From Flectonema sp. DT1601 (Eukaryota): DNA of 64,000 bases. Position 1 is the first letter of the stretch; the number at the start of each line of letters is the position of its first letter. The DNA lies in NCBI GenBank assembly GCA_964019425.1, contig OZ025783.1, positions 372,001 through 436,000 of the forward strand. The letters run 5' to 3'. Below are positions 23,688 through 64,000 of the stretch, one piece after another. The notes below the pieces were generated by a model. That model saw nothing but the letters and a program-made list of their open reading frames with translations. It was not told the DNA's origin and did not search any database. The position numbers and the translations under genes were made by a program.

Positions 23688-23822
23688 CATTCAGATAGTA
23701 GTAATACCGAGACACACAACGATTTTCGTTCGGTGCAGAAAAAAAAAGAAAAAAAAAACTTGGCTATTCCAAGTTGAGATTCCCAAACCCGATGCAACAA
23801 AAAAAGAAAAACCAAATATAGT

Positions 23823-24211
23823 GATACGTTGTTTTTGTGTTACACAGATGCTTCATTAATCTATTGTGTTCTTTTAGTTTGTAGTGTTTGGAGTAGGCAT
23901 GGTATACAAGAAAAAAGAAAACAACTACCTGTCTAGAATGAAGGACCTATCGAGCGGCCCCTACTGACTGTTAGATAAAGCTTAACAACATCACTCCACA
24001 CGAATTTAGAGCGTTGTCTTACTTCGAGTTTACCATTCACAGAAACGGTTGTTTTGATATTAATAAAAGAAAACTAAATACAGGGATACGTTGTTGTTTT
24101 TGTGTTACACAGATGCTTCATTGATCTATTGTGTTCTTTTAGTTTGTAGTGTTTGGAGTAGGCACGGTATACAAGAAAATAAAAAACAACTACATGTCTG
24201 GCAGGAAGGAC
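23823..24211. repeat. Two ~125-bp direct repeats (23823-23946, 24085-24211) around a ~135-bp spacer
   Basis: Near-identical gatacgttg...cacagatgcttcatt...ggagtaggca.ggtatacaag...gaaggac. Confidence 0.9.
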
Positions 24212-24406: not shown

Positions 24407-24655
24407 GGGAGACGTATGTTCGATTTTGTAAAAATTACAACTGTGTTGTATCATAAAAACATAAAGATAATTTAGCATAATAAAGTAACTATTAGGTTTC
24501 GAGAGTAATCCATATACCTCTTACCTCTATTCTCTCTCATCAGTATGGTGTAGAAGTAAGTCAGTCAAATGTTGAGAGTAGGACTGGAATGTAGTTACTT
24601 TAAATGTTTGTAATAAAAAACATAAAAAAAAAATTAAAATACTTTATCAAGTTCC
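24407..24655. mobile_element. Foldback/MITE-like element enclosing hammerhead-like copy 1
   Basis: Homologous to 38274-38565; inner inverted repeat AAAGTAACTA/TAGTTACTTT; G-run left end. Confidence 0.6.
24494..24560 (-). ncRNA. Putative pseudoknotted hammerhead ribozyme, copy 1
   Basis: Minus strand: CUUACUUCUA-CA-CCAUA-CUGAUGA-GAGAG-AA-UAGAGGUAAG-AGGU-A-UAUGG-AUUA-CUCUC-GAA-ACCU. Confidence 0.7.
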
Positions 24656-24660
24656 ATAGG

Positions 24661-24702
24661 AAGAATGCAAGGCAATACTAATACTGCTTGCCTTGCATTC
24701 TT
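24661..24702. repeat. Perfect 15-bp inverted repeat
   Basis: AAGAATGCAAGGCAA / TTGCCTTGCATTCTT with a 12-nt loop. Confidence 0.9.
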
Positions 24703-27192
24703 TCCAATTATTATTATTGTTGTTGTCGTTGTGTATTTATTTCCGTACTTTCAAGTTCATAAGTAATGGAAGGGCGGTGAAAAGAAATTGTACCAAGAAA
24801 ATCCATTGTTCGGTAGAGAGAGAATTGCGGCAGCGTAAACTTACCTAATCGACTTTATAAGGATTTTTGTACCAGTTTGCGCACAAATAAAAAAAAAAGT
24901 AAAAAAAAGTAAAGTTGGCTAACAAGCTCTCTCACAGGTAAAAACAAAACAAAATACTACTAATTGATCAAACGAAAAAAAAAGAGTGGGTTAGAAACCT
25001 GCACTGACACCAACAGATACGGAAACAGAAAGAACAAAAACCAGAGAATGAAGCTCAACAAGGTTCTGTGTTTCAACAATAAAAAACAAGAAGGGAGGGA
25101 AGAAAAAAAATAATAAAAAAGAGAAAATCAGATAAAGCAGCATCTTAGGAGAAGAAAAAGGGGGAAAAAAAAACACTCAACAAAAATGGAAAAACTGCCC
25201 AATAGAGATCACAGTTTTTCTATGAAACACATCATTGGTGAGTTTCCATTTGTCTGCTGATGCTTAATATATATTCGCTCTTTTTCTTTTTTAGAAAAAA
25301 AGATTTTTTTTTTTTTCTCCACGTAAAACATTTGTGTGGAATGTTCACACCCAAACTTCCACACATGCAAAAAAAAAAAAAAAAAAAAAGGAAAAAACTA
25401 AAAACCAAAAATGGGTGAGCAAGAATAAAAAACTTGGGAGAAAAAAAGTCCTCCATGACGAGTTTACAAAAAACGAAGAAGAAAAGATATGCCACACAAA
25501 AGGTTTATAACACTGGTACAACTAAATACCAACTCAGACTAACGTTTTCCATTATGTAGTGACGACACAACCTTTTCATCACGGTGAGATAGCAGCAACA
25601 AAAAAAAAAAAAAAAAAAAACCAAAATAGAGCATCGATAACGGATGTCACATTAACAAAGTGACCCCGAGTCGAGGAGAAAACAATTGGTTTCTAACTAC
25701 TTATATTCGTAGTGTGGTTTTGTTCATTGAAACCACAATCAGATTTCAGTCAGACTGTGAAAGCTAGTAAGGAATTCATAATGTTTACCTCCTAAAAAGG
25801 CTCGGGTTTTTTTTTTTTTCTCTAAAAAAAAAAAAAAGAAATATATGTCTTGTTAAGAAAACAAACATAATTATTGTTTACCTTTTCATACTGGGGGGAC
25901 TACTTGACATCAACTAAAAAAAAAAAGAAAAATGTCTAAATTTAAAAAAATAAATAAGTCAGCACATACGTTATTTGGATGACAAACACGAGACAGTCGT
26001 TAAGTTATAAACCTCGAAACTGAGCAAAACAAAAATAGAGTTCAGCTAAACATAGTTGCCATGCAAAAAAAAGACCAACAAATGTACTGTCGAACACGGA
26101 GACTCGGAGGCATTCCCTGTAGACTTTATCAAACTCGTACCCCTTAAAGGGATACAAGTGTGACTTATAAATAATAATCTCTTGTATTGCATCAAAAAGT
26201 TAACTAACATAAACAATTAGTAATTTATGAGACAGTGAGGGGGGAAAGGAGGGAAATCGATTTTTTTTTTTTTTTTAAATTTTTTTTTTATCAAACCACG
26301 TGGAGAGAGTTATCTCCCAGTCGAAGTTGGGAGAACCAGAAAATTTATGCATCAACCGACCTGCTTTTGCACAAGTTACAATATGAGTTTATTATAAAAT
26401 AGGGCACTAAATCGAAATATATAATTAAATAAAAAGAAGTGTGGAATATTTCAACAGAATATAAAAAAACTGATTAATGTCCATCGGAGCTCGCCAGGAA
26501 GGGTTCCATCTCTTCAACCGCTGTTCGTTTTATAACGAGTGCGAGTTCCTCTTCATCGGAGCTGTAGTCTTCTTTCTTGCGCTTTTCATTATCGTCGGTG
26601 AGGAGTAGAATTCCTTCATTCAACGATGTGCATGGTCGTTATCATTATTATTATCCTGCGGTAGAGTTTTTCCTTAAATCATGCGAAAACAATATTCTGG
26701 ATGTTTAAAATATCCGTCAAAGTAGTCGAATGATAGACGTCGGTCTGTCACTCCTTCGACAATGTCTCGAAGGATCAAAGGAGATATGGGCTACTAAGTA
26801 GTACTAGCCTTGTTTAAAATGAATGCGGCGACTATTTTGAGTACTCCAGGGGACCGAGATCCACGAACTGGTGGATATCTGTTGTGTTTTTGTTTGCTTG
26901 CTATCCCCAGAACAGTTAAAGATACCCCATTCGGGGGATAGTTTTTGATCGCCAAGTTCTACTGGTTGATGTTCGTAGAACGTTTGTTGCAGTTTTTGCA
27001 AATAACTGAAATTATTTATTCGGTTTAAATAAAGATGGTCTGCAACAAGATTCGTAGGAGTATGGCAGTTCCCATCGATTCCTGAGCAGTGGGGGCACTA
27101 TGCCAGCCGAGGCTAACTTTGTCGTCAACGTTATGGTTTCGCCTGCTTGCACAAGTTAACACTTTGTGCCAAACATCTCCACTACTAACACT

Positions 27193-38273: not shown

Positions 38274-38565
38274 GGGGGATAACTGTTTGATTTTGTACGT
38301 AAAATACAAATGTATTGTATCATAAACAACATAACGATAATTTAACATTAGTTTTAGATACAGTGACTAGGTGTGATGCGTAACTCAGCCTTTTAAAGTA
38401 ACTATTTAGGTTTCGAGAGTAATCCATCTACCTCTTACCTCTATTCTCTCATCATCAGTATGGTGTAGAAGTAAGTCAATCATCTGTTGTGACTGAAGCA
38501 TCTTAGTTAGCAAGACTAGGATGTAGTTACTTTGTTATAATGTTTATATATAAAAAAAAACATTC
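38274..38565. mobile_element. Foldback/MITE-like element enclosing hammerhead-like copy 2
   Basis: Homologous to 24407-24655; long imperfect inverted arms; left arm repeated at 53087-53150. Confidence 0.6.
38408..38475 (-). ncRNA. Putative pseudoknotted hammerhead ribozyme, copy 2 (possibly degenerate)
   Basis: As copy 1, but with an extra U after CUGAUGA and a G.A mismatch at the first stem I pair. Confidence 0.5.
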
Positions 38566-40367
38566 TTCTTGTTGTTACTAGTTCGTAGCGCACTACTAGC
38601 GGAGCACTCTTCTACAATAAATGTAGAAAGTATAGTGGGGGAGGGAATCATAAGTTCGCTTCATGATGTAGAAACAGTAATAAACTATAGAACTCAAGAT
38701 AGCGAAGTATGAAAGAAAATTTAGCTTGCTTCATTTCAAAATAGTATTTAAAATGTAAAGATAACAGATAACAACAGCAATGTTGTTATCCGTGTATAAT
38801 CCGTGGTTTGAAGAAAAAAAATAAAATAAAAACCGTAAACTGATATTTCGATTTTACGGAGATATTGCAAAAAAAGAAAAATAAACACCAGCTTGTACAA
38901 CAAAAAAAAATTATTGATGATGGGAAAAGCGTGGAACTTGACAATGTAAAAAACAGAAACAACTTTAGCTAAAGGGGACGATGAATGTAATAGAGCCTTT
39001 GATCTTATTCGAGACACACAACAGAGTTAAGGAATCACTTGACAACTTTGCGTCAAAAAACCAGAAACCCATTTTACGGTAAAACGTATTTGCTTTTTTT
39101 TCGCAGTCCAATTTTTTTTTTTTTTTTTGTAATGACGGACAACGGGCAAAACGAACAAAGGAAAAAAAAATGGGGAGAAAAAAAGAATTAAAAAAAATAA
39201 AAAATACCAGTTTAAGAATAACAATCAGAATGGTTTATTTTTTATTTCATTTTATTCTTTTTTTGTTTTACAGAACATGTTGAAAGTTAGCTGAATAGAT
39301 CTTAAGAAAGGGCTATCCAGAGGAAAGGTTACATGCAAAAACATTGCACGAAATATCAACAACAAAAGAAACGGTCGAAGAAACAGTAACTAACATTTTT
39401 TTTTTCCAATTTAAAATTAAAATCCCAGGAAGAGGCCAGACCTCCCACCACATTGCTTGAAAAGCAATCAGCGGTTTAAAATTAATTATACGATCCCGTC
39501 ACAAATTGTACGGAGGCAAAAAAAAAAAACTTTTTTTTTTCTCTGGTGCAAAATGAGTAAATCGATATGCAGACTTTAATGTCCAATAGGAAGGTGGTAT
39601 TAGGAAGAAAGACAACAATAGATCAAAACTCTAAGAAGACAAAACACGTACGTAATAAAGACTGACGGGCAAAATTGCTACTTTCAACAAGATAATTTTT
39701 AAAAAAAAAAGGGAAGATGAATAAACAACAGAATTACTTTCACTACCTCGTTTGGAGACAGATAGAGAGTTCGGCTGCCACATCCTAACACATGTCCTGT
39801 TTAAAACAAGGACACAATTTTTAGTGTTAACCAATTTCTTTTTTTTTTTTTTATTATTATTGTTCAACAAAAAGATTTTTTTTTGATCTCAAAAAAAAGA
39901 AAAAAACTTAATAAAAATAAAAATAAAAACAACAGCCAAGGTAAAAAAAAAGAAAAACTTTGGAATAAATGTTAAATAATTATACATACAAACTTGTGAC
40001 AAATGGTAATTTTTTTTTTTTTTGTTAAAGTCAGGGAAGTCAACACCAAACCCACAGGGTATCAACAATTTAGTATCACAACTCTCGCAGGCGAGAAGAG
40101 GGTGACGACCACCGTTTGCACGAAGCAGGTAGAGTAAGAGACGGCTGATAACGCCAATTTTTCACCAAGTAGGAGAACACGTCACTACTAAATTACAACC
40201 TGGAATACAAAAGTTAGTTAGCAAAAGCAAGAACAAAAATAAAAGAGGAACCTCATTTTTTTCTTACTTTTTTTTATTATTCACACCGTTGTTTTGTGTG
40301 CGCAACCTGAGCATGCTCCGATTTCCCAAAGACCTGAGCGACGAGCCCCTACTGAAGGTTCGAGACG

Positions 40368-40529
40368 CCAGACAAATCACTCCACCAACCAGGAGCGGCC
40401 ATGCACCACCACACAATGGATCGAGAAAGAGCTCTCAATCTGTCAATCCTTTCATTGTCCTGACCTAGTAAAATTCCCCGTGTTGAGTCAAATTAAGCCG
40501 CATACTCCACGCCTGGTGGTGTCATTCCG
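40368..40529 (-). pseudogene. Isolated ~160-bp 18S (SSU) rRNA fragment, euglenozoan-like
   Basis: Reverse complement: GGAATGACACCACCAGGCGTGGAGTATGCGGCTTAATTTGACTCAACACGGGGAA...GGATTGACAGATTGAGAGCTCTTTCTCGAT...GGTGGTGCATGGCCGCTCCTGGTTGGTGGAGTGATTTGTCTGG; flanks are not recognisably rDNA. Confidence 0.92.
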
Positions 40530-42517: not shown

Positions 42518-42635
42518 GGGGGGTAACTTGATACTAATATTAAATGGAAAGCAACTTGAAACTGGCAAAAACGAGAATAGGGTTCGGCCAAACCTGGTTG
42601 CAATATAAGAAATCAACAGTTGGTATCGATAAAAA
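42518..42635 (+). mobile_element. ~120-bp G-headed hairpin element, copy 1
   Basis: Near-identical copies at 52198-52307 and 52888-53008. Confidence 0.75.
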
Positions 42636-44726
42636 GGGGGGGGTTCTGCATCGCCTCATATGCATGAAAGAAAAAAAAAAAAAAACCGTAAACCTGTGAG
42701 GGAGAGGGAAAATTAAAGAATAAATATAAAAAAATAGAAGATAAGAAGTTATACGTATACTATTCAATAAATACTCGTTGGTTCATTCTGCAGTCAAGAT
42801 ACGGTCCATGACTCATGCAAAGCATCATTTATTTATTTATTTTTATTTATTTATTTGCTAGGAGCCAAAAATTAAAAAAAAGGAAGAGAGAAAAAAACAG
42901 AATTTGTGTAAGTTGGGAGAAAGAACGTGCAATAAAAACAAATGCTGCTGCTCCCTTGTTTTTTTTTTCCCCTCCTTTTTTCTAAAAACTGTGACGAGAG
43001 AAACAAAAGAATTCTCTCCCGTCGGTCTCAGCTGCTTAACGAAACATACCAAAATACCAGCTTGAAAAAGCTGGTATTTTTTTTTTTTTTTTTTATTTAG
43101 TTTAAAACCAAATCGAAAAAAAGAATAATATAACAAAAAATGAAAATAAAAAAAAAGAGGAGAGAATAGAAAAAAAATAAATATAGCAAAAACTTGTATT
43201 CAAAAAAAAAGCATCCTCGATTGAGGGTTACTCTTTTTTCTGCTCACGTCATCATAGCTGAAACAAGCAACTAAGCGCATCGCAACATAAGCATCGCGAT
43301 GTCTTTAAGAAACCCTGCTTCTGAGTACAGTTAATGTACTCCACAGGAGTGATGAGACAAACAAATTCCGTCAAACATTAGCTGGGAATCCGTTTTGGAC
43401 TGAAAAACCTAACAGAATGAACAACCCACATATCATGGGGGGTTCACAAAACAACTGATAGATAGTTCAAAGTCCATGTGATATAAATAATTAGTTTAAG
43501 GACAATAAAGAGCAAAGTCATTAGCCATCAGTAAACTCAGGCAATTCAGATGTATAGCTTCAGGGGCCATCTGACCCCTAAAGCGAGCAAGGTAATAGTA
43601 TTATATATGGGTAGGTATTCATAAGTGCATTTTTAAGCTATTGTATATGCTACAGAAGAATGCTACAGAAAAAATACAAATACAAATACAAATAAAAAAA
43701 AATAATTTTTTAGCCAAGGGTAAATGCTGACAATTCGGTCCACAAAATAAATTTTGCAGATGTATTTGAGCACCTTAAGATGATCATTTTTTAATCAAAA
43801 CGAAAGAGTAATGAGTAAATCAGGGGGCAATAAATTACAACGAGGTCCACCGGACTGGTGACAATGTTTCCAATGTAGCATGCCAGGGGGTAAGACAGGC
43901 AATGCGCCTGACGTGGGTGTAGTAGAGTCCTGTTTGTTTGGAGCGTTTCTGTTTACTGACAGAACACCCGTCAGGAGGTAACCTGTACTTGGCTTATACT
44001 TCTACCAATTTTCGCAAAAAAAAAAAAAAAAAAAAAACTTCAAACGTATATGAGGAAATATAAAGCAACTTGAAATTGGCTAAAAACCAATTGAGTTGCT
44101 TGCCGTAATGCTATAAATATCTGCATTGTATCAAAAAGATAACTAATGTAAACAATTAGTAATTTATGAGACAGCCGACTAAAGGTAATGTTAGTAGAGG
44201 TACACAATCTAATGTCGTAAAAGCCTCCACACTAAAATCAAGTGTTTGTAACTTATCTAAATACACTCCTCCCTTCCATGTTGTTATTTAGTACAGAATC
44301 GAGTTATGGGGGAGGTACAAATATAGAAAACGTGAGCATGCAGGGAGTGCGTAGGTTTATCGAAATTGCAATCATTCGTGTCATTCCAAGGGAAGAAAGC
44401 CGCTACGACCAAGGTTGCCTTATGGCTAGCTAAGTTGTTAAATAAAAGGTACAAAGAATCATGAATGACATGTACTAACATTCAGACATATGGCAGCCAC
44501 AGTTGGGTTGTGAATCCGACCGCGTACTACAAGTTGAGCACCCCTGCCTTGCAGTTCGTTACAGCGGATGTAGATTTCTTTTCTTTTTCTTGTTTTCGGT
44601 TATCATTTTTTTTTTTTTTAAAACTAGTTAGTTTATGTGAGATTCTTTAGTTAGTATTAATAGTAGTTATCAGTCAAAAAAGAAAAAAAAATTCAAAAAA
44701 TCGTAGGAAACAAACAAATAATGGGT

Positions 44727-44802
44727 TGGTTTCAGGCTATTAAGAAACCTTTCTTCGTACCATTCCCCTTACCCAGCCCTCTTCAGCGAAGAGGTCAAGG
44801 GG
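44727..44802 (-). ncRNA. Putative pseudoknotted hammerhead ribozyme, copy 3 (divergent sequence)
   Basis: Minus strand: CCCCUUGACC-UCUUCG-CUGAAGA-GGGCUG-GGUAAGGGG-AA-UGGU-A-CGAAGA-(12 nt)-UAGCCU-GAA-ACCA. Confidence 0.7.
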
Positions 44803-52085: not shown

Positions 52086-52197
52086 TCTGTGAAGGGGGGG
52101 TGAAACTTTGACAATGTAAAAACAGTAATAACTTTAGATATTAAAAACAAAATTAAAATATCGAATAGATGTTTCAAAGAAAATTACATTCTGTGAA

Positions 52198-52307
52198 GGG
52201 GTAATTTGATACTAATATTAAATGGAAAGCAACTTGAAACTGGTTAAAAACGAGAATAGGGTTCGGCCAAACAAGAAAATCAATAATTGGTATCGTTAAA
52301 AAATCCC
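52198..52307 (+). mobile_element. G-headed hairpin element, copy 2 (internal deletion)
   Basis: Matches 42518-42635. Confidence 0.75.
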
Positions 52308-52887
52308 TTGAATACCCAGGAAGAGATTGTAGTTTAACAATGTAGAAAAACAATAATAAGCCTTATAATACTAAAATAGATAATAAGGTTGATCAGCTAA
52401 AAAGTAACGATAACAATATAACAATCAGAACATAATTAAAATAATGAATCTGTGAGAGGGTTGAATGTTTTGATTTTAAAAAACGCAAGTTGAGCATTAA
52501 CCTGTTAGAAGGAAAGATGGCTTATAAAGAAGTGACTACTGACTGCAAGCTTGAGGGACACCATGCATCAAACTTCTTGTTCTATTACTTTTTTTTTTTT
52601 TGCTTTTCTTATAAATAATTTTTAAAAAAAAAATTTAAAAAACGGATTTCCCACCCCTACGTTTTCTTTTTTTTTTTTTTTATATTGTACCTATGTAGTT
52701 CTTATTCAGATTGAAAGTCATTTATTTTCCTCCAGTGAGACAGGATTCTCCATTCAACGAAATATATTTACGTATGTTCCTTTTTACTAGGCCAGCAGCT
52801 AATACGAAATACCACACCAGAATAAACAGATAAATATACACTAGAAGCTGTGTTGGTAATAACTGAATATTAAGTCTTGGAGTGGGT

Positions 52888-53008
52888 GGGTAACTTGATA
52901 CTAAAATTAAATGAAAAGCAACTTGAAACTGGCTAAAACGAGAATAGGGTTCGGCCAAACCTGGTTGCAATATAAGAAAATCAACAATTGGTATCGATAA
53001 AAAATCCC
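52888..53008 (+). mobile_element. G-headed hairpin element, copy 3
   Basis: Matches 42518-42635; GGG...CCC termini. Confidence 0.75.
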
Positions 53009-53802
53009 ATATGTGTTCGAATATGGGATTCAGGGGCCACATACTACAGGTTGAGCGCCCCCATGCCCTGTAGACCGTTACAGCTTGGGGGGTTAACTGT
53101 TTGATTTTGTATGTAAAATACAAATGTTTTGTATCATAAACAACATAACGAGCTTGGGGGGTGAAACTTTAACAATGTAAAAACCCTAGGTACTGGGGGA
53201 AATCTTTTCTCATTTTCTTTATGCTGTCATTGTTAAGAAATTCTGTACTGAAAGGTTCCTTTTTTTTTTTTTTTTTTCTTTTTTTTTTCCCTCTCATGCA
53301 CGTATTTTTATTTTTATGATATGAAATTTTCCAGACTTCACCACATTACAAAATAAAATATATAATATAACAGATTCGTTGTTGTGACAGAACTGTCACC
53401 TACTATACCACAATGAACGCGTTCACCATTAAAAATCATGCTGAACGTTGACATTCCGTGGTACGTAATTCAGAATCATCCAAAGAGTTCCTGAGGGAAA
53501 GTAATGTTTGTGTAAAATAGAAATAAAGAACCCCAAATAAACACATTGCTAAAGAATGCTCAAACATTGTGTATCAGCGCTTTTCACTTCTGCCGAAACG
53601 ATTTTTTTCGGGAAAACACGGAGCTTAAAATGATGAATGGCGTGACAGAGGCAGGATTAAATCCACATTCACTAAAACAACATCATCTCAATAAAAGAAA
53701 GGAAAAGATGAGAAAAACTAAATATTCAAAAGTCATATTGGTTTGTGTGACTTTTTCAAAGGAACTCCTCTGATTACGTCCCAATACGGTGATAACGAGA
53801 GT

Positions 53803-54336
53803 CTACTTACTCTTAACGGCTTCAGCTTGCTTCCAAGCGTGGATCTGCTTGCAAACACTGTTGTTGACCTTCTCCTGAAGTTCCTTTTGGAATCCCATCT
53901 TAAACAGAACCTCAACCCAAACAAAAAAAGGTGCCAACAACAACGACTGTCCGAATGATGTCAACAAAGCAGGGGCTTTCTTCTCAAAGATACCATGACC
54001 TACGAATTGAAGAATCCAACTAACAACGTGAATCGCAATGGCGATAGTGTAAGGGTTCTCTACCTCCTTTAGAAAGATGGTACTGGTTTCTTGCATAATG
54101 TACAAAAAGAACAAGTACGGAGTAGCAATGACCGGATCCATAAGCATATAAAACACTCCGTATACAATAGCAGTCACTTGCGGTGCGTTCACTGGAAGTC
54201 CGGTTTCAACTTCGCCAACGAACACCATCGCTGACCATAAAATCAACGGCACACAAACAATATGAATCCACTGGTTGATAGCATCGTGATGGTAGGCTCC
54301 GTAAAACGCGAGCTGCTTCTCCTTGTCGATAAACAT
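53803..54336 (-). CDS. MPO1: MPO1/DUF962 2-hydroxy fatty acid dioxygenase-like membrane protein, copy 1
   Basis: FYGAYHHDAINQWIH.VCVP, WILQFVGHGIFEK.APAL and LLAPFFVWVE. Confidence 0.9.
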   Translation of the reverse strand: MFIDKEKQLAFYGAYHHDAINQWIHIVCVPLILWSAMVFVGEVETGLPVNAPQVTAIVYGVFYMLMDPVIATPYLFFLYIMQETSTIFLKEVENPYTIAIAIHVVSWILQFVGHGIFEKKAPALLTSFGQSLLLAPFFVWVEVLFKMGFQKELQEKVNNSVCKQIHAWKQAEAVKSK

Positions 54337-54858
54337 ATTAAAGTAGTTGTGGATGTGCTATGGAAGATGAGGATATTATATTAAATAAACCTTACTACAC
54401 TCAAAGATAAAGCAATAAAGTTAAACCTAAAGTATGACAACAAACTTACCTTTCACGTTGACATCCCGTGGTGCATATTCTACAGAATCAACCTAAAGAG
54501 TTCCTAAAGGAAAGTAATATTTGTGTATAACAGAAATGAAAACCCCTAAACAGATACGTTGTTGTTGTTAAAGAGAGCAAAGAACGTCGCGAAGTACGTT
54601 TCAAAGTAGGAATGCTCAAACAATGTTCCGGTGATTTTCACTTCTGCCGAAGCGATTTTTTCGGAAAAACACGGAGCTTAAAATGACAAGCAATAGAGGC
54701 AGGATTAAATCCACATTCACTAATATATCATCTCAATGGTGGAGAGAAAGAAAGGATAAAAAAACAACTTAAATTCAAAAGTCGTATATTGTATTAGTTT
54801 GTGTGACTTTTTCAAAGGAACTCCTCTGATTACGTCCCAATACGGTGATAACGAGAGT

Positions 54859-55392
54859 CTACTTACTCTTAACGGCTTCAGCTTGCTTCCAAGCGTGGAT
54901 CTGCTTGCAAACACTGTTGTTGATCTTCTCCTGAAGTTCCTTTTGGAATCCCAACATAAACAGAACCTCAACCCAAACAAAAAAAGGTGCCATCAACATC
55001 GTCTGTCCGAATGATGTCAACAAAGCAGGGGCTCTCTTCTCAAAGATACCATGACCTACGAATTGAAGAATCCAACTAACAACGTGAATCGCAATGGCGA
55101 TAGTGTAAGGGTTCTCTACCTCCTTTAGAAAGATGGTACTGGTTTCTTGCATAATGTACAAAAAGAACAAGTACGGAGTAGCAATGACCGGATCCATAAG
55201 CATATAAAACACTCCGTATACAATAGCAGTCAGCTGTGGTACGTTCACTGGAAGTCCCGTCTCAATTTCGCCAACGAACACCATCGCTGACCATAAAATC
55301 AACGGCACACAAATAATATGAATCCACTGGTTGATAGCATCGTGATGGTAGGCTCCGTAAAACGCGAGCTGCTTCTCCTTGTCGATAAACAT
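54859..55392 (-). CDS. MPO1: MPO1/DUF962 protein, copy 2
   Basis: Same motifs; tandem duplicate. Confidence 0.9.
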   Translation of the reverse strand: MFIDKEKQLAFYGAYHHDAINQWIHIICVPLILWSAMVFVGEIETGLPVNVPQLTAIVYGVFYMLMDPVIATPYLFFLYIMQETSTIFLKEVENPYTIAIAIHVVSWILQFVGHGIFEKRAPALLTSFGQTMLMAPFFVWVEVLFMLGFQKELQEKINNSVCKQIHAWKQAEAVKSK

Positions 55393-55963
55393 ATTAAAGT
55401 AGTTGTGGGTGTGCTATGGAAGATGAGGATATTATATTAAATAAACCTTACTACACTCAAAGATAAAGCAATAAAGTTAAATCTAAAGTATGACAACAAA
55501 CTTACCTTTCATCAGAAAAGATAATGCAGGATACTAAAGGTCAGTATTGTGCGAACCAATAATGTGAAGAACACGAGCGAATGTTTTAAACTTATCGAAA
55601 TTACATAAATAGACCGCAGTGATGATATTTTAGTCATATAAATGCGTTCACCATATTTGAGATCCTAAAGGAAAGTAATACTTGTGTATAACAGAAATGA
55701 AGAACTCCAAATAAACACATTTTTGTTAAAGAATCAATTCTATCGATGCTTTTCACCGAAACGATTTTTTCGGAAAACACGGAACATGAAATGATAAAGT
55801 GACAGAGGCAGGATTAAATCCACATTCACTAAAACAACATCATCTCAATGGTGGAGAGAGAAAGGATGAGAAACAACTTAAAAAAATCAAAAATCATATT
55901 GGTTTGTGTGACTTTTTCAAAGGAAATCCTCTGATTACGTCCCAATACGGTGATAACGAGAGT

Positions 55964-56497
55964 CTACTTACTCTTAACGGCTTCAGCTTGCTTCCAAGCG
56001 TGGATCTGCTTGCAAACACTGTTGTTGACCTTCTCCTGAAGTTCCTTTTGGAATCCCATCTTAAACAGAACCTCAACCCAAACAAAAAAAGGTGCCAACA
56101 ACAACGACTGTCCGAATGATGTCAACAAAGCAGGGGCTTTCTTCTCAAAGATACCATGACCTACGAATTGAAGAATCCAACTAACAACGTGAATCGCAAT
56201 GGCGATAGTGTAAGGGTTCTCTACCTCCTTTAGAAAGATGGTACTGGTTTCTTGCATAATGTACAAAAAGAACAAGTACGGAGTAGCAATGACCGGATCC
56301 ATAAGCATATAAAACACTCCGTATACAATAGCAGTCACTTGCGGTGCGTTCACTGGAAGTCCGGTTTCAACTTCGCCAACGAACACCATCGCTGACCATA
56401 AAATCAACGGCACACAAACAATATGAATCCACTGGTTGATAGCATCGTGATGGTAGGCTCCGTAAAACGCGAGCTGCTTCTCCTTGTCGATAAACAT
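55964..56497 (-). CDS. MPO1: MPO1/DUF962 protein, copy 3
   Basis: Protein identical to copy 1. Confidence 0.9.
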   Translation of the reverse strand: MFIDKEKQLAFYGAYHHDAINQWIHIVCVPLILWSAMVFVGEVETGLPVNAPQVTAIVYGVFYMLMDPVIATPYLFFLYIMQETSTIFLKEVENPYTIAIAIHVVSWILQFVGHGIFEKKAPALLTSFGQSLLLAPFFVWVEVLFKMGFQKELQEKVNNSVCKQIHAWKQAEAVKSK

Positions 56498-57206
56498 ATT
56501 AAAGTAGTTGTGGGAGTTATGGATAGCAAGCTGTAGGAAAGTTGAAATAACTTATTTTTATAACACGTTACGTCTACACAAACAGATCTCCAATTTACAT
56601 CTCTGCGCCCCGAAAGTGAATTCCCTTCCTGGAAATATAAATATTTTAGTAATCTTTTTGTTTTTGTTTATTTTTCGTAATAATACAGGCAAAGCGATAC
56701 CTGCTGAAATCTGAAAAGAAAAGTGAAGCACTTTGGTTTAAGAAGTGCCGCAGTTTTCTTCTCCAGGGAGATGAAAATTTTAGTACTGAGAAGGGATTGA
56801 TACGCAGGTGATGACGCCACTCACCATCTAACTTGTTTCATGCCACGATGCTGTTACATTTGTCTTTTTTTTCCGTTAGAAAAATGGAGATTTCTGTGAC
56901 CCTTCTAACATCAACCTGGATTCCCCAAACAAAAAGAGAGGAAGAAAGTAACTTTTAACATTTTTTTTTTTAAAGGGCGTTTTTTTTTTTTTTTCTTCTT
57001 GTTTTTTTTTCAATCACTGTGCGCTATTAGACAGGTTGCCAGGTTGCCCCCCCCGACGGGATTAAATCCACTGTCGTATTTAGGTAGCTTCCAGCAACAC
57101 GTTTGTCCTAGTTACTCAGTAGAAAGAAGAAAAAGTAATAAATAAATAATAAAGAAATTATTGCAACCAAGACAATAATAAAACATTGCATTGCTGTGGT
57201 AAGTCA

Positions 57207-57740
57207 CTACTTGCTTTTAGTAGTCTCAGCTTGCTTCCATTCGTGTAGCTGCTTGCAAACAATGTTGTTGACCTTCTCGTGTAGATCTCTTTGGAATCCC
57301 AACTTAAACAGAACCTCAACCCAAACAAAAAAAGGCGCCATCAACAATGACTGTCCGAATGATGTCAACAAAGCAGGTGCCCGTTGTTCAAACACACCGT
57401 GACCTATGAATTGAAAGGTCCAACACACAACGTGAAGAGTAATAGCAAAGGTGTAAGGGTTCTCTACCTCCTTCAGAAAGATGGTACTGGTTTCTTGCAT
57501 AATGTACAAAAAGAACAAGTACGGAGTAGCAATGACCGGATCCATAAGCATATAAAACACTCCGTATACAATAGCAGTCAGCTGTGGTACGTTCACTGGA
57601 AGTCCCGTCTCAATTTCGCCAACGAACACCATCGCTGACCATAAAATCAACGGCACACAAATAATATGAATCCACTGGTTGATAGCATCGTGATGGTAGG
57701 CTCCGTAAAACGCGAGCTGCTTCTCCTTGTTGATGAACAT
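57207..57740 (-). CDS. MPO1: MPO1/DUF962 protein, copy 4
   Basis: Same motifs; most divergent C-terminal half. Confidence 0.9.
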   Translation of the reverse strand: MFINKEKQLAFYGAYHHDAINQWIHIICVPLILWSAMVFVGEIETGLPVNVPQLTAIVYGVFYMLMDPVIATPYLFFLYIMQETSTIFLKEVENPYTFAITLHVVCWTFQFIGHGVFEQRAPALLTSFGQSLLMAPFFVWVEVLFKLGFQRDLHEKVNNIVCKQLHEWKQAETTKSK

Positions 57741-63342: not shown

Positions 63343-63777
63343 TTTATAAAGTTATTTAAATAGATAGAAACTGTTGAGAATGAAAATGAATTCAAATCAA
63401 AAAACAAAAAGAAAATCTAAACCACCACGACCACCAACCTACTTGGAGGAGGATACCATCATATGAAATAAACCTGAAAAAAACACATAAATAATATTAT
63501 TACTCTCACTCGTCACTCTAACCTGTTTATACCACGAGATGAATAGATAACTTCATTCACCAAAAGGATGATATCCAAATCGATAGGTGAGTACAAGTAC
63601 CCAATTATAAGAAAACAATCATCACTTTGAAAGAGAGGATGAGTGAGACTGACAACAGATACAGTCATCGGTTGAAGGAAGAACAAAAAGAAAAAAAGAA
63701 GAAGGGGAAAAAAAAAATGCAGTTTACTTTTCTTAAAAGGAAAGAACTGCCAGAATAAAACTGTGAAATTTATTTTA

Positions 63778-63946
63778 GAGAAAACCCTATAATTCCACGC
63801 AAATGTTACCGAAATATCTGATCTCAACTTCCTCAAGTTTCCGAAACGTACAGCTCCGTAAACTATTTTGTGTGGAGCTGTCCATTTCGGAAACTTTTGT
63901 GTTGAGATCGGACATTTCAGAAATTTGTGGAATTATAGGTTTTCCC
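63778..63946. repeat. ~170-bp long imperfect palindrome (foldback/MITE-like)
   Basis: Nested arms AAAACCCTATAATTCCAC/GTGGAATTATAGGTTTT, GATCTCAAC/GTTGAGATC, AAGTTTCCGAAA/TTTCGGAAACTT and ACAGCTCC/GGAGCTGT. Confidence 0.9.
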
Positions 63947-64000
63947 TTTCATTTTATTTTATTATTGAAACTGGCTAAATAGAAATGGCAACAAGCGATA

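Follow-up and report, generated by a model that had tools for sequence, protein, structure and literature searches.

The question raised by this locus is whether an unusually ordered set of hammerhead elements on the minus strand at 24560-24494 constitutes a ribozyme, and if so, of which kind and how it came to lie there. The sequence-only reading of the window (the whole 64,000-nucleotide stretch of DNA that was analyzed) had proposed a pseudoknotted hammerhead in three copies, and three were indeed found on the minus strand (copy 1, 24560-24494; copy 2, 38475-38408; copy 3, 44802-44727). When pairs were counted by coordinates, all of the strands assigned to copy 1 were present at their positions, the hammerhead core and GUA triplet were complete, and the predicted cut was correctly placed between 24515 and 24514, with A17 at 24515. 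The one claim that failed was that the arrangement was unrecognized among described hammerheads: it is the type CSG of Eckert et al. 2023 (PMC10085705). That the motif sits within a retroposed repeat was no part of the earlier reading. The parts of copy 1 and its surroundings are as follows.

24592..24601, minus strand: outer stem P0, 5' strand, 10 of 10 pairs with 24482-24491
24562..24586, minus strand: hairpin H1, 5 bp, directly 5' of stem U
24551..24560, minus strand: stem U, 5' strand (the helix that connects stem I to stem II in type CSG), pairing probability 0.98 in the nested ensemble
24532..24548, minus strand: block C, comprising the stem I 5' strand, CUGAUGA, and the stem II 5' strand (coordinate pairing)
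24520..24529, minus strand: stem U, 3' strand (coordinate pairing)
24510..24519, minus strand: block S, comprising a stem III strand, the GUA triplet, the predicted cut at 24515/24514, and the stem I 3' strand
24494..24505, minus strand: block G, comprising the stem II 3' strand, GAAA, and the stem III 3' strand
24482..24491, minus strand: outer stem P0, 3' strand

In copy 1, stem I (24548-24544/24514-24510) and stem II (24536-24532/24505-24501, including G10.1-C11.1) were each paired at 5 of 5 positions and stem III (24519-24516/24497-24494) at 4 of 4. The extra 10-bp stem U (24560-24551/24529-24520) was paired at 10 of 10 positions, one of them a G.U. CUGAUGA occupies 24543-24537 and GAA occupies 24500-24498, and all conserved core nucleotides, the A15.1-U16.1 pair, and an NUH triplet are present. 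The block order C-S-G was confirmed, with an additional helix that links stem I and stem II at their outer ends.

As reported previously, the hammerhead can be split into blocks C, S, and G, and the non-circularly permuted order C(UGAnGA)-S(ite)-G(AAA) was named type CSG; the sections of that paper covered here describe five sequences, two of them unique, which came from metagenomic soil DNA, were assigned to no host, and showed only modest covariation (PMC10085705). Both CSG-1 and CSG-2 cleaved in vitro at the expected site, slowly, with kobs values of 0.004 and 0.026 per min, and the evidence for biological relevance was described there as weaker, lacking covariation (PMC10085705). The alignment of CSG-1 and CSG-2 also has an upstream helix, which is equivalent to stem U of the present copies, and the published descriptor permits a U after A9, as in copy 2 (PMC10085705). 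The topology is not new, and the copies in the window belong to this known, very rare type. They differ from CSG-1 and CSG-2, as published, in having a eukaryotic host, in lying within a repeat of probably retroposed origin, in their unrelated stem sequences, in a GUA rather than a GUC triplet, and in the outer stem P0 and two hairpins that enclose the ribozyme. The type I hammerheads of Penelope-like pLTRs and non-LTR retrozymes are described as nested and often minimal and dimeric (PMC4209133; bioRxiv 10.64898/2026.07.22.740005), whereas the present motif is doubly pseudoknotted and complete as a monomer. Among titles and opening abstract lines, which covered few subscription papers, none was found that placed type CSG in a eukaryote or a retroelement. 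Judged from its sequence, copy 1 would very probably cleave in vitro.

To assess how readily such an order arises, a descriptor open to all six block orders was used, with stem I of at least 5 bp, stem II of at least 5 bp, and stem III of at least 3 bp including A15.1-U16.1. Its two matches in the 64-kb window were copies 1 and 3, each of which has CSG order and a stem U. At the same stem lengths, the nested orders CGS, GSC, and SCG gave no match in the window, which bears out the proposal that the strands cross and fall outside types I, II, and III. In 1,000 local dinucleotide shuffles (500-nt blocks), no CSG match and five matches of other orders were obtained. Standard models miss the motif, as had been anticipated: Rfam gave no match at the gathering score in the window, and between 23300 and 46400 it returned no ribozyme family at E<=1, only a small-subunit (SSU) rRNA fragment and weak chance matches. 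The other two ribozymes are the following.

38408..38475, minus strand: copy 2, with one additional U following A9 and mismatched (A.G) at 2.1/1.1; cut predicted at 38429/38428
44727..44802, minus strand: copy 3, diverged in sequence, with CSG order and stem U; predicted cut 44758/44757

Copy 2, in which stem U is paired at 10 of 10 positions, was missed by the strict descriptor because of the extra U after A9 and the A.G mismatch beside the cut. Copy 3 has little sequence in common with copy 1 and keeps the block order, and the spacing from the third base of stem II to GGUA is 15 nt in both. Its stem U (44802-44793/44774-44765), with one C-rich and one G-rich strand, has nine pairs around one mismatch (seven contiguous and two further). 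MAFFT left copy 3 out of structural register, so pairs were counted by coordinates. Between copies 1 and 3, all 14 pairs of stems I to III were canonical, with 8 double-sided changes, 1 single-sided change, and 5 unchanged pairs, a count that represents one sequence pair. Speaking against copy 3 are its G.U at 10.1/11.1 and a hairpin that competes across its core, with the stem I 5' strand unpaired at a probability of 0.20; neither the shared tail nor a flanking duplication was found around it. An outer stem P0 with 10 of 10 pairs can be drawn for copy 3, but 5% of random positions match that, and it is not claimed.

Could the arrangement be a chance one without ribozyme function? Its stems are short, with duplex energies of -3.2 kcal/mol for stem I and -4.9 kcal/mol for stem II, and the folding of copy 1 is only modestly better than that of shuffles (z of -1.65). 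Against this stand the empty shuffles, the covariation of stems I to III between copies 1 and 3, and the outcome for other loci matching the motif words. Word-pattern searches gave 2 matches in viral contigs (at least 120 with a looser pattern), 87 in metagenomes, and at least 120 in GTDB, and among the 329 matches listed, a single locus (L228) passed relaxed stems, without a real stem U. By blastn, the repeat described below showed no resemblance to these 329 listed matches beyond one 23-nt match. The word patterns were tuned to the present family and would miss CSG-1, CSG-2, and the nematode forms discussed below, so the searches do not imply absence. Chance is a highly improbable explanation. 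CUGAUGA also contains both box words of a C/D-box snoRNA; this candidate was rejected, as the three hammerhead stems covary.

The computed ensemble suggests how the pseudoknotted form might be reached. In the nested ensemble of copies 1 and 2, stem U forms with a probability of 0.98 and stem III with 0.94-0.95, while the strands of stems I and II are about half unpaired (0.40-0.74), so that the pseudoknots can form as two loop-loop helices. Hairpins U and III would form first, and their loops would then pair as stems I and II, giving an ordinary hammerhead core within P0. Two points weigh against a self-cleaving ribozyme here: the slow cleavage of the published CSG ribozymes, and the steric route of stem U to the far end of stem III.

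The ribozymes of copies 1 and 2 are part of a dispersed repeat, of which a third, tail-only copy was found.

24410..24620, minus strand: repeat copy 1, internally deleted relative to copy 2, ribozyme intact, 3' end adjoining a C-run
38281..38634, minus strand: repeat copy 2, long form of about 350 nt with P0, H2, H1, ribozyme, and 3' tail
38533-38524/38404-38395, minus strand: P0 of copy 2
53094..53150, minus strand: tail-only copy, 5' truncated, 95% identity with the copy 2 tail

Copies 1 and 2 have in common the outer 10-bp stem P0 around the ribozyme and the 3' tail, and copy 1 is without two internal segments of copy 2. The three copies have a common 3' end and differing 5' ends, and all three 3' ends adjoin C-runs, a feature that is not specific to Penelope-like elements. 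The tail-only copy has a 12-bp target-site duplication on its two sides (53162-53151 and 53093-53082), beginning in a C-run, and among the 94 minus-strand C-runs tested, this was the sole repeat longer than 7 nt. A possible 7-nt C-rich duplication flanks copy 2 (38641 and 38277), and no flanking duplication of at least 9 nt was found for copy 1. Truncation at the 5' end, junctions at C-runs, and target duplication are the pattern left by target-primed reverse transcription, and retroposition of the repeat is, in our view, very likely. Neither pLTR-forming partial tandems nor inverted copies nor 30-40-bp tail extensions were seen in the window; one tandem-like contig was found in sequencing run X2, introduced below.

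Three other short families lie in the window.

1163-1249, 42518-42635, 52198-52307, and 52885-53008, gene orientation: first short family
38931-38971, 52095-52186, and 53156-53184, gene orientation: second short family
26149-26238 and 44122-44174, gene orientation: third short family, 66% like the tail of the ribozyme element

Most of their members end at C-runs, and some are nested at each other's 3' ends. For one insertion (52201/52097), the target duplication measures 15 bp.

The long open reading frames (ORFs) of the window, without exception on the minus strand, code for housekeeping domains of eukaryotes. For the RIO1 kinase, the closest named relative was that of Diplonema papillatum, at 62% identity over the whole length, and two transcriptome proteins were closer. 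On these sequences the host appears to be a diplonemid-like euglenozoan and the window nuclear DNA. All three ribozymes and the tail-only copy lie on the gene-coding strand of this unidirectional cluster. By analogy with SIDER retroposons, which are said to have a regulatory role, the host might have domesticated the motif so that it cuts polycistronic pre-mRNA, or 3' untranslated regions (UTRs) of great length, in cis. The shared orientation would suit this role, as would the intact ribozyme of copy 1 despite the loss of two flanking segments. The gene organization of the group would suit it as well: D. papillatum genes are likely co-transcribed in unidirectional clusters, and diplonemid 3' UTRs have a median length of about 800 nt and reach several kilobases, according to the parts of the genome paper covered (PMC10161547). 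However, C-runs of at least 5 nt are biased to the gene strand (37 versus 13 on the other), so that target choice can explain the orientation of the copies, and copy 2 is mismatched at the cut site. Domestication is improbable, and a retroposed element carrying its own ribozyme is preferred.

Related sequences in three public sequencing runs (X1 to X3) bear on whether the ribozyme matters to the element. These are assembled contigs with 5-10% of the words of copy 1's region, from which habitat, strain, expression, and RNA ends cannot be read. A 367-nt contig of X1, a marine metatranscriptome library, covers 38326-38631 with the ribozyme intact. It differs from copy 2 by 32 substitutions, of which 1 falls in the 88 sites of the ribozyme and P0 and 31 in the 218 other sites (Fisher p=3e-4). 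When compared by hand, the single change in the ribozyme and P0 restores the 1.1/2.1 pair, and hairpin H2 carries two double-sided pair changes. From the uneven substitutions, the pair changes in H2, and the repaired mismatch, it follows that the source elements diverged under constraint on the RNA fold. Other contigs of X1 and X3 over 38392-38453, all short, include one with GAAU for GAAA and another whose linker is U-rich and longer, as in copy 3.

Record 9 of X2 (206 nt, depth 2.5) consists of a tail, 26 other bases, and then a copy starting at 38428, which is nucleotide 1.1, the first base past the predicted cut. An exact start at the cut site would be expected by chance in an estimated 3% or so of cases (about 10 ends over about 350 nt), a figure that concerns one contig. 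The two ends of the record share 30 identical bases, giving a cycle of 176 nt, as would be seen in a cyclic contig of that period. Such a cycle might point to a retrozyme-like element multiplying through tandem monomers or circular RNA, and animal retrozymes have been proposed, in the literature covered, to derive from Penelope-like pLTRs. However, the 176-nt unit is without block C, so its junction cannot rebuild the ribozyme; the copies in the window are single and dispersed; and an equal cycle results when a copy goes into the C-run at which an older one ends, of which 53162 and 52201 are instances. We regard retrozyme-like multiplication as quite unlikely, though less so than domestication. 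The simplest reading of record 9 is that a copy of a cleavage product was inserted into the C-run behind an older copy.

If the repeat is retroposed, which type of element was its parent? No reverse transcriptase was found among the 27 window ORFs scanned. Likewise, none of these 27 ORFs combined a GIY-YIG nuclease with a Penelope-type reverse transcriptase, which a non-autonomous piece would lack anyway. The closest parallels came from the Naiad and Chlamys groups of Penelope-like elements. Craig et al. 2021, in the parts covered, reported no canonical hammerhead in Naiads, only the flags 'HHR_core' and 'HHR_half_core', and a target bias to (C)n or (CA)n in many Chlamys elements (PMC8557442). 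The supplement of that paper was searched for seven core words, and the nematode passages were read by eye rather than scored by script. On this reading, a complete CSG ribozyme together with stem U is present in seven of eight nematode Naiad families, and only its 3' part in the remaining one. In Naiad_Ppac and Naiad_Parc, the whole CSG ribozyme and stem U were read by eye about 450 nt past the ORF (PMC8557442). Naiad-1_Nbra, Naiad-2_Nbra, Naiad-3_Nbra, and Naiad_Hcon, whose passages were assigned through file order, also appeared whole with stem U. A passage that is probably Naiad_Asuum has a whole CSG with the extra U seen in copy 2, and in Naiad_Hpol only the 3' blocks were seen. Stem lengths in these families, again by eye, were 5-6 bp for stem I, 4-5 bp for stem II, 6-12 bp for stem III, and 9-15 bp for stem U. 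In some nematode Naiads of this supplement, a stem III of 11-12 bp follows directly after stem U without a linker, which is sterically hard to fit. The other core-word passages were canonical type I motifs, coding sequence, or unclassifiable. For Chlamys they held no CSG, only canonical type I or unclassifiable forms, in a search that covered cores unbroken by line ends and with the flanks of the seven words.

The present repeat and the Naiad and Chlamys elements, as described in the parts covered, have in common 5' truncation and, for many Chlamys families, C-rich targets. With the nematode Naiads, by our own reading by eye of the supplement, the repeat also shares a CSG hammerhead with stem U in the 3' region. 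In contrast to these elements, it shows no ORF and no pLTR. The Naiad parallel, together with the (C)n targets, makes a Penelope-like parent of Naiad/Chlamys type the most likely one, and by this analogy we lean towards it.

The same ribozyme could instead sit in a SINE-like passenger of a non-LTR retrotransposon, of either the APE (ingi/L1) or the RLE (CRE/Hero) kind. The 5' truncation and the clean duplications of 12 and 15 bp agree with such a passenger, and clean duplications of 12-15 bp fit APE-type LINEs at least as well as a Penelope-like origin. D. papillatum is annotated with LINE-1-, SLACS-, R2-, and jockey-like ORFs in the parts of the genome paper covered (PMC10161547), and 'Penelope' and 'GIY-YIG' are absent from seven supplements of that paper. 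In the supplement of Craig et al. 2021, 'Diplonema' and 'Euglen' had no match (PMC8557442). Because of the clean duplications and the missing Penelope record in the D. papillatum supplements, a LINE is the main rival to a Penelope-like parent. The trypanosomatid ingi/L1Tc/SIDER elements offer a likeness, being euglenozoan retroposons that carry a ribozyme, duplicate their target, and include short non-autonomous members; they differ in that their ribozyme is HDV-like and lies in the 5' 77-nt hallmark, and in their poly(A) ends, according to the sections of the source covered (PMC12278014). Here, the ribozyme is a hammerhead close to the 3' end, C-runs rather than poly(A) stand at the 3' junctions, and no ribozyme was matched by Rfam. 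Type CSG, moreover, can be read in Naiad retrotransposons instead, within the supplement searched. A non-LTR parent is unlikely, yet it is a better candidate than either retrozyme-like multiplication or domestication, and a Penelope-like parent is preferred.

Taken together, our main reading, to which we give a probability of roughly 0.7, is of a CSG motif with predicted self-cleavage after GUA, located close to the 3' end of a short repeat that is dispersed in a diplonemid-like nuclear genome, was likely spread by reverse transcription, and probably derives from a Penelope-like element. In hammerhead chemistry, the 2'-OH at A17 attacks to give a 2',3'-cyclic phosphate and a 5'-OH. Through cleavage, the RNA of the element would be freed from longer transcripts, be they host or tandem ones, and one end of the RNA would be set. 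Starting at the 3' tail, a reverse transcriptase provided in trans would then copy this RNA into targets rich in C, and the products would be truncated at the 5' end or begin at the cut. The majority of copies in the genome would probably be passengers, with selection on the ribozyme acting in the source elements. A broader proposal is put forward tentatively, at somewhat less than even chances: CSG may be the working ribozyme of the Penelope-like branch with an N-terminal nuclease, comprising all eight nematode Naiad families and an undescribed (C)n-targeting diplonemid lineage, with cleavage in vivo setting the 5' ends of retroposed copies. The soil founders may be pieces of such elements.

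For type CSG, the copies contribute covariation that is deep, a eukaryotic host group that can be identified, and a context, the 3' part of an element that was very likely retroposed. A further seven or eight diverged cases would come from the nematode Naiads in the supplement searched, elements reported to have no canonical hammerhead. The cellular role of non-circularly permuted hammerheads can now be tested, as can the question of whether Naiad-type elements are truly without a ribozyme. In addition, there is a hint of an undescribed retroelement lineage in diplonemids, and a ribozyme on the sense strand would cut polycistronic transcripts.

Several further features of the window were recorded. 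The splice-donor word GGUAAG lies in the 3' strand of stem U in three of three copies, and 15 occurrences on the minus strand compare with an estimated 5 or so expected in intergenic DNA. At 24845 and 45029 on the minus strand, 225-285 nt upstream of copies 1 and 3, a similar splice-donor-like word is followed by a CT-rich run, and 35-40 nt of this segment match contigs in X1 and X2. A hairpin with arms of about 15 bp (24661-24702) lies upstream of copy 1, and a 150-bp local duplication of 89% identity (23799-23946 and 24062-24211) lies directly downstream of it. The SSU rRNA fragment matched by Rfam (E=9.6e-7 at 40457-40414) belongs to an isolated, intergenic stretch of eukaryotic SSU rRNA at 40370-40520 on the minus strand, which is possibly retroposed. 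At 53803-57740 on the minus strand, a 177-aa gene is present four times in tandem with DNA 85-100% alike, and the two members scanned belong to the Mpo1-like dioxygenase family. Near the window end, an imperfect inverted repeat of about 170 bp (63777-63947) could be a MITE.
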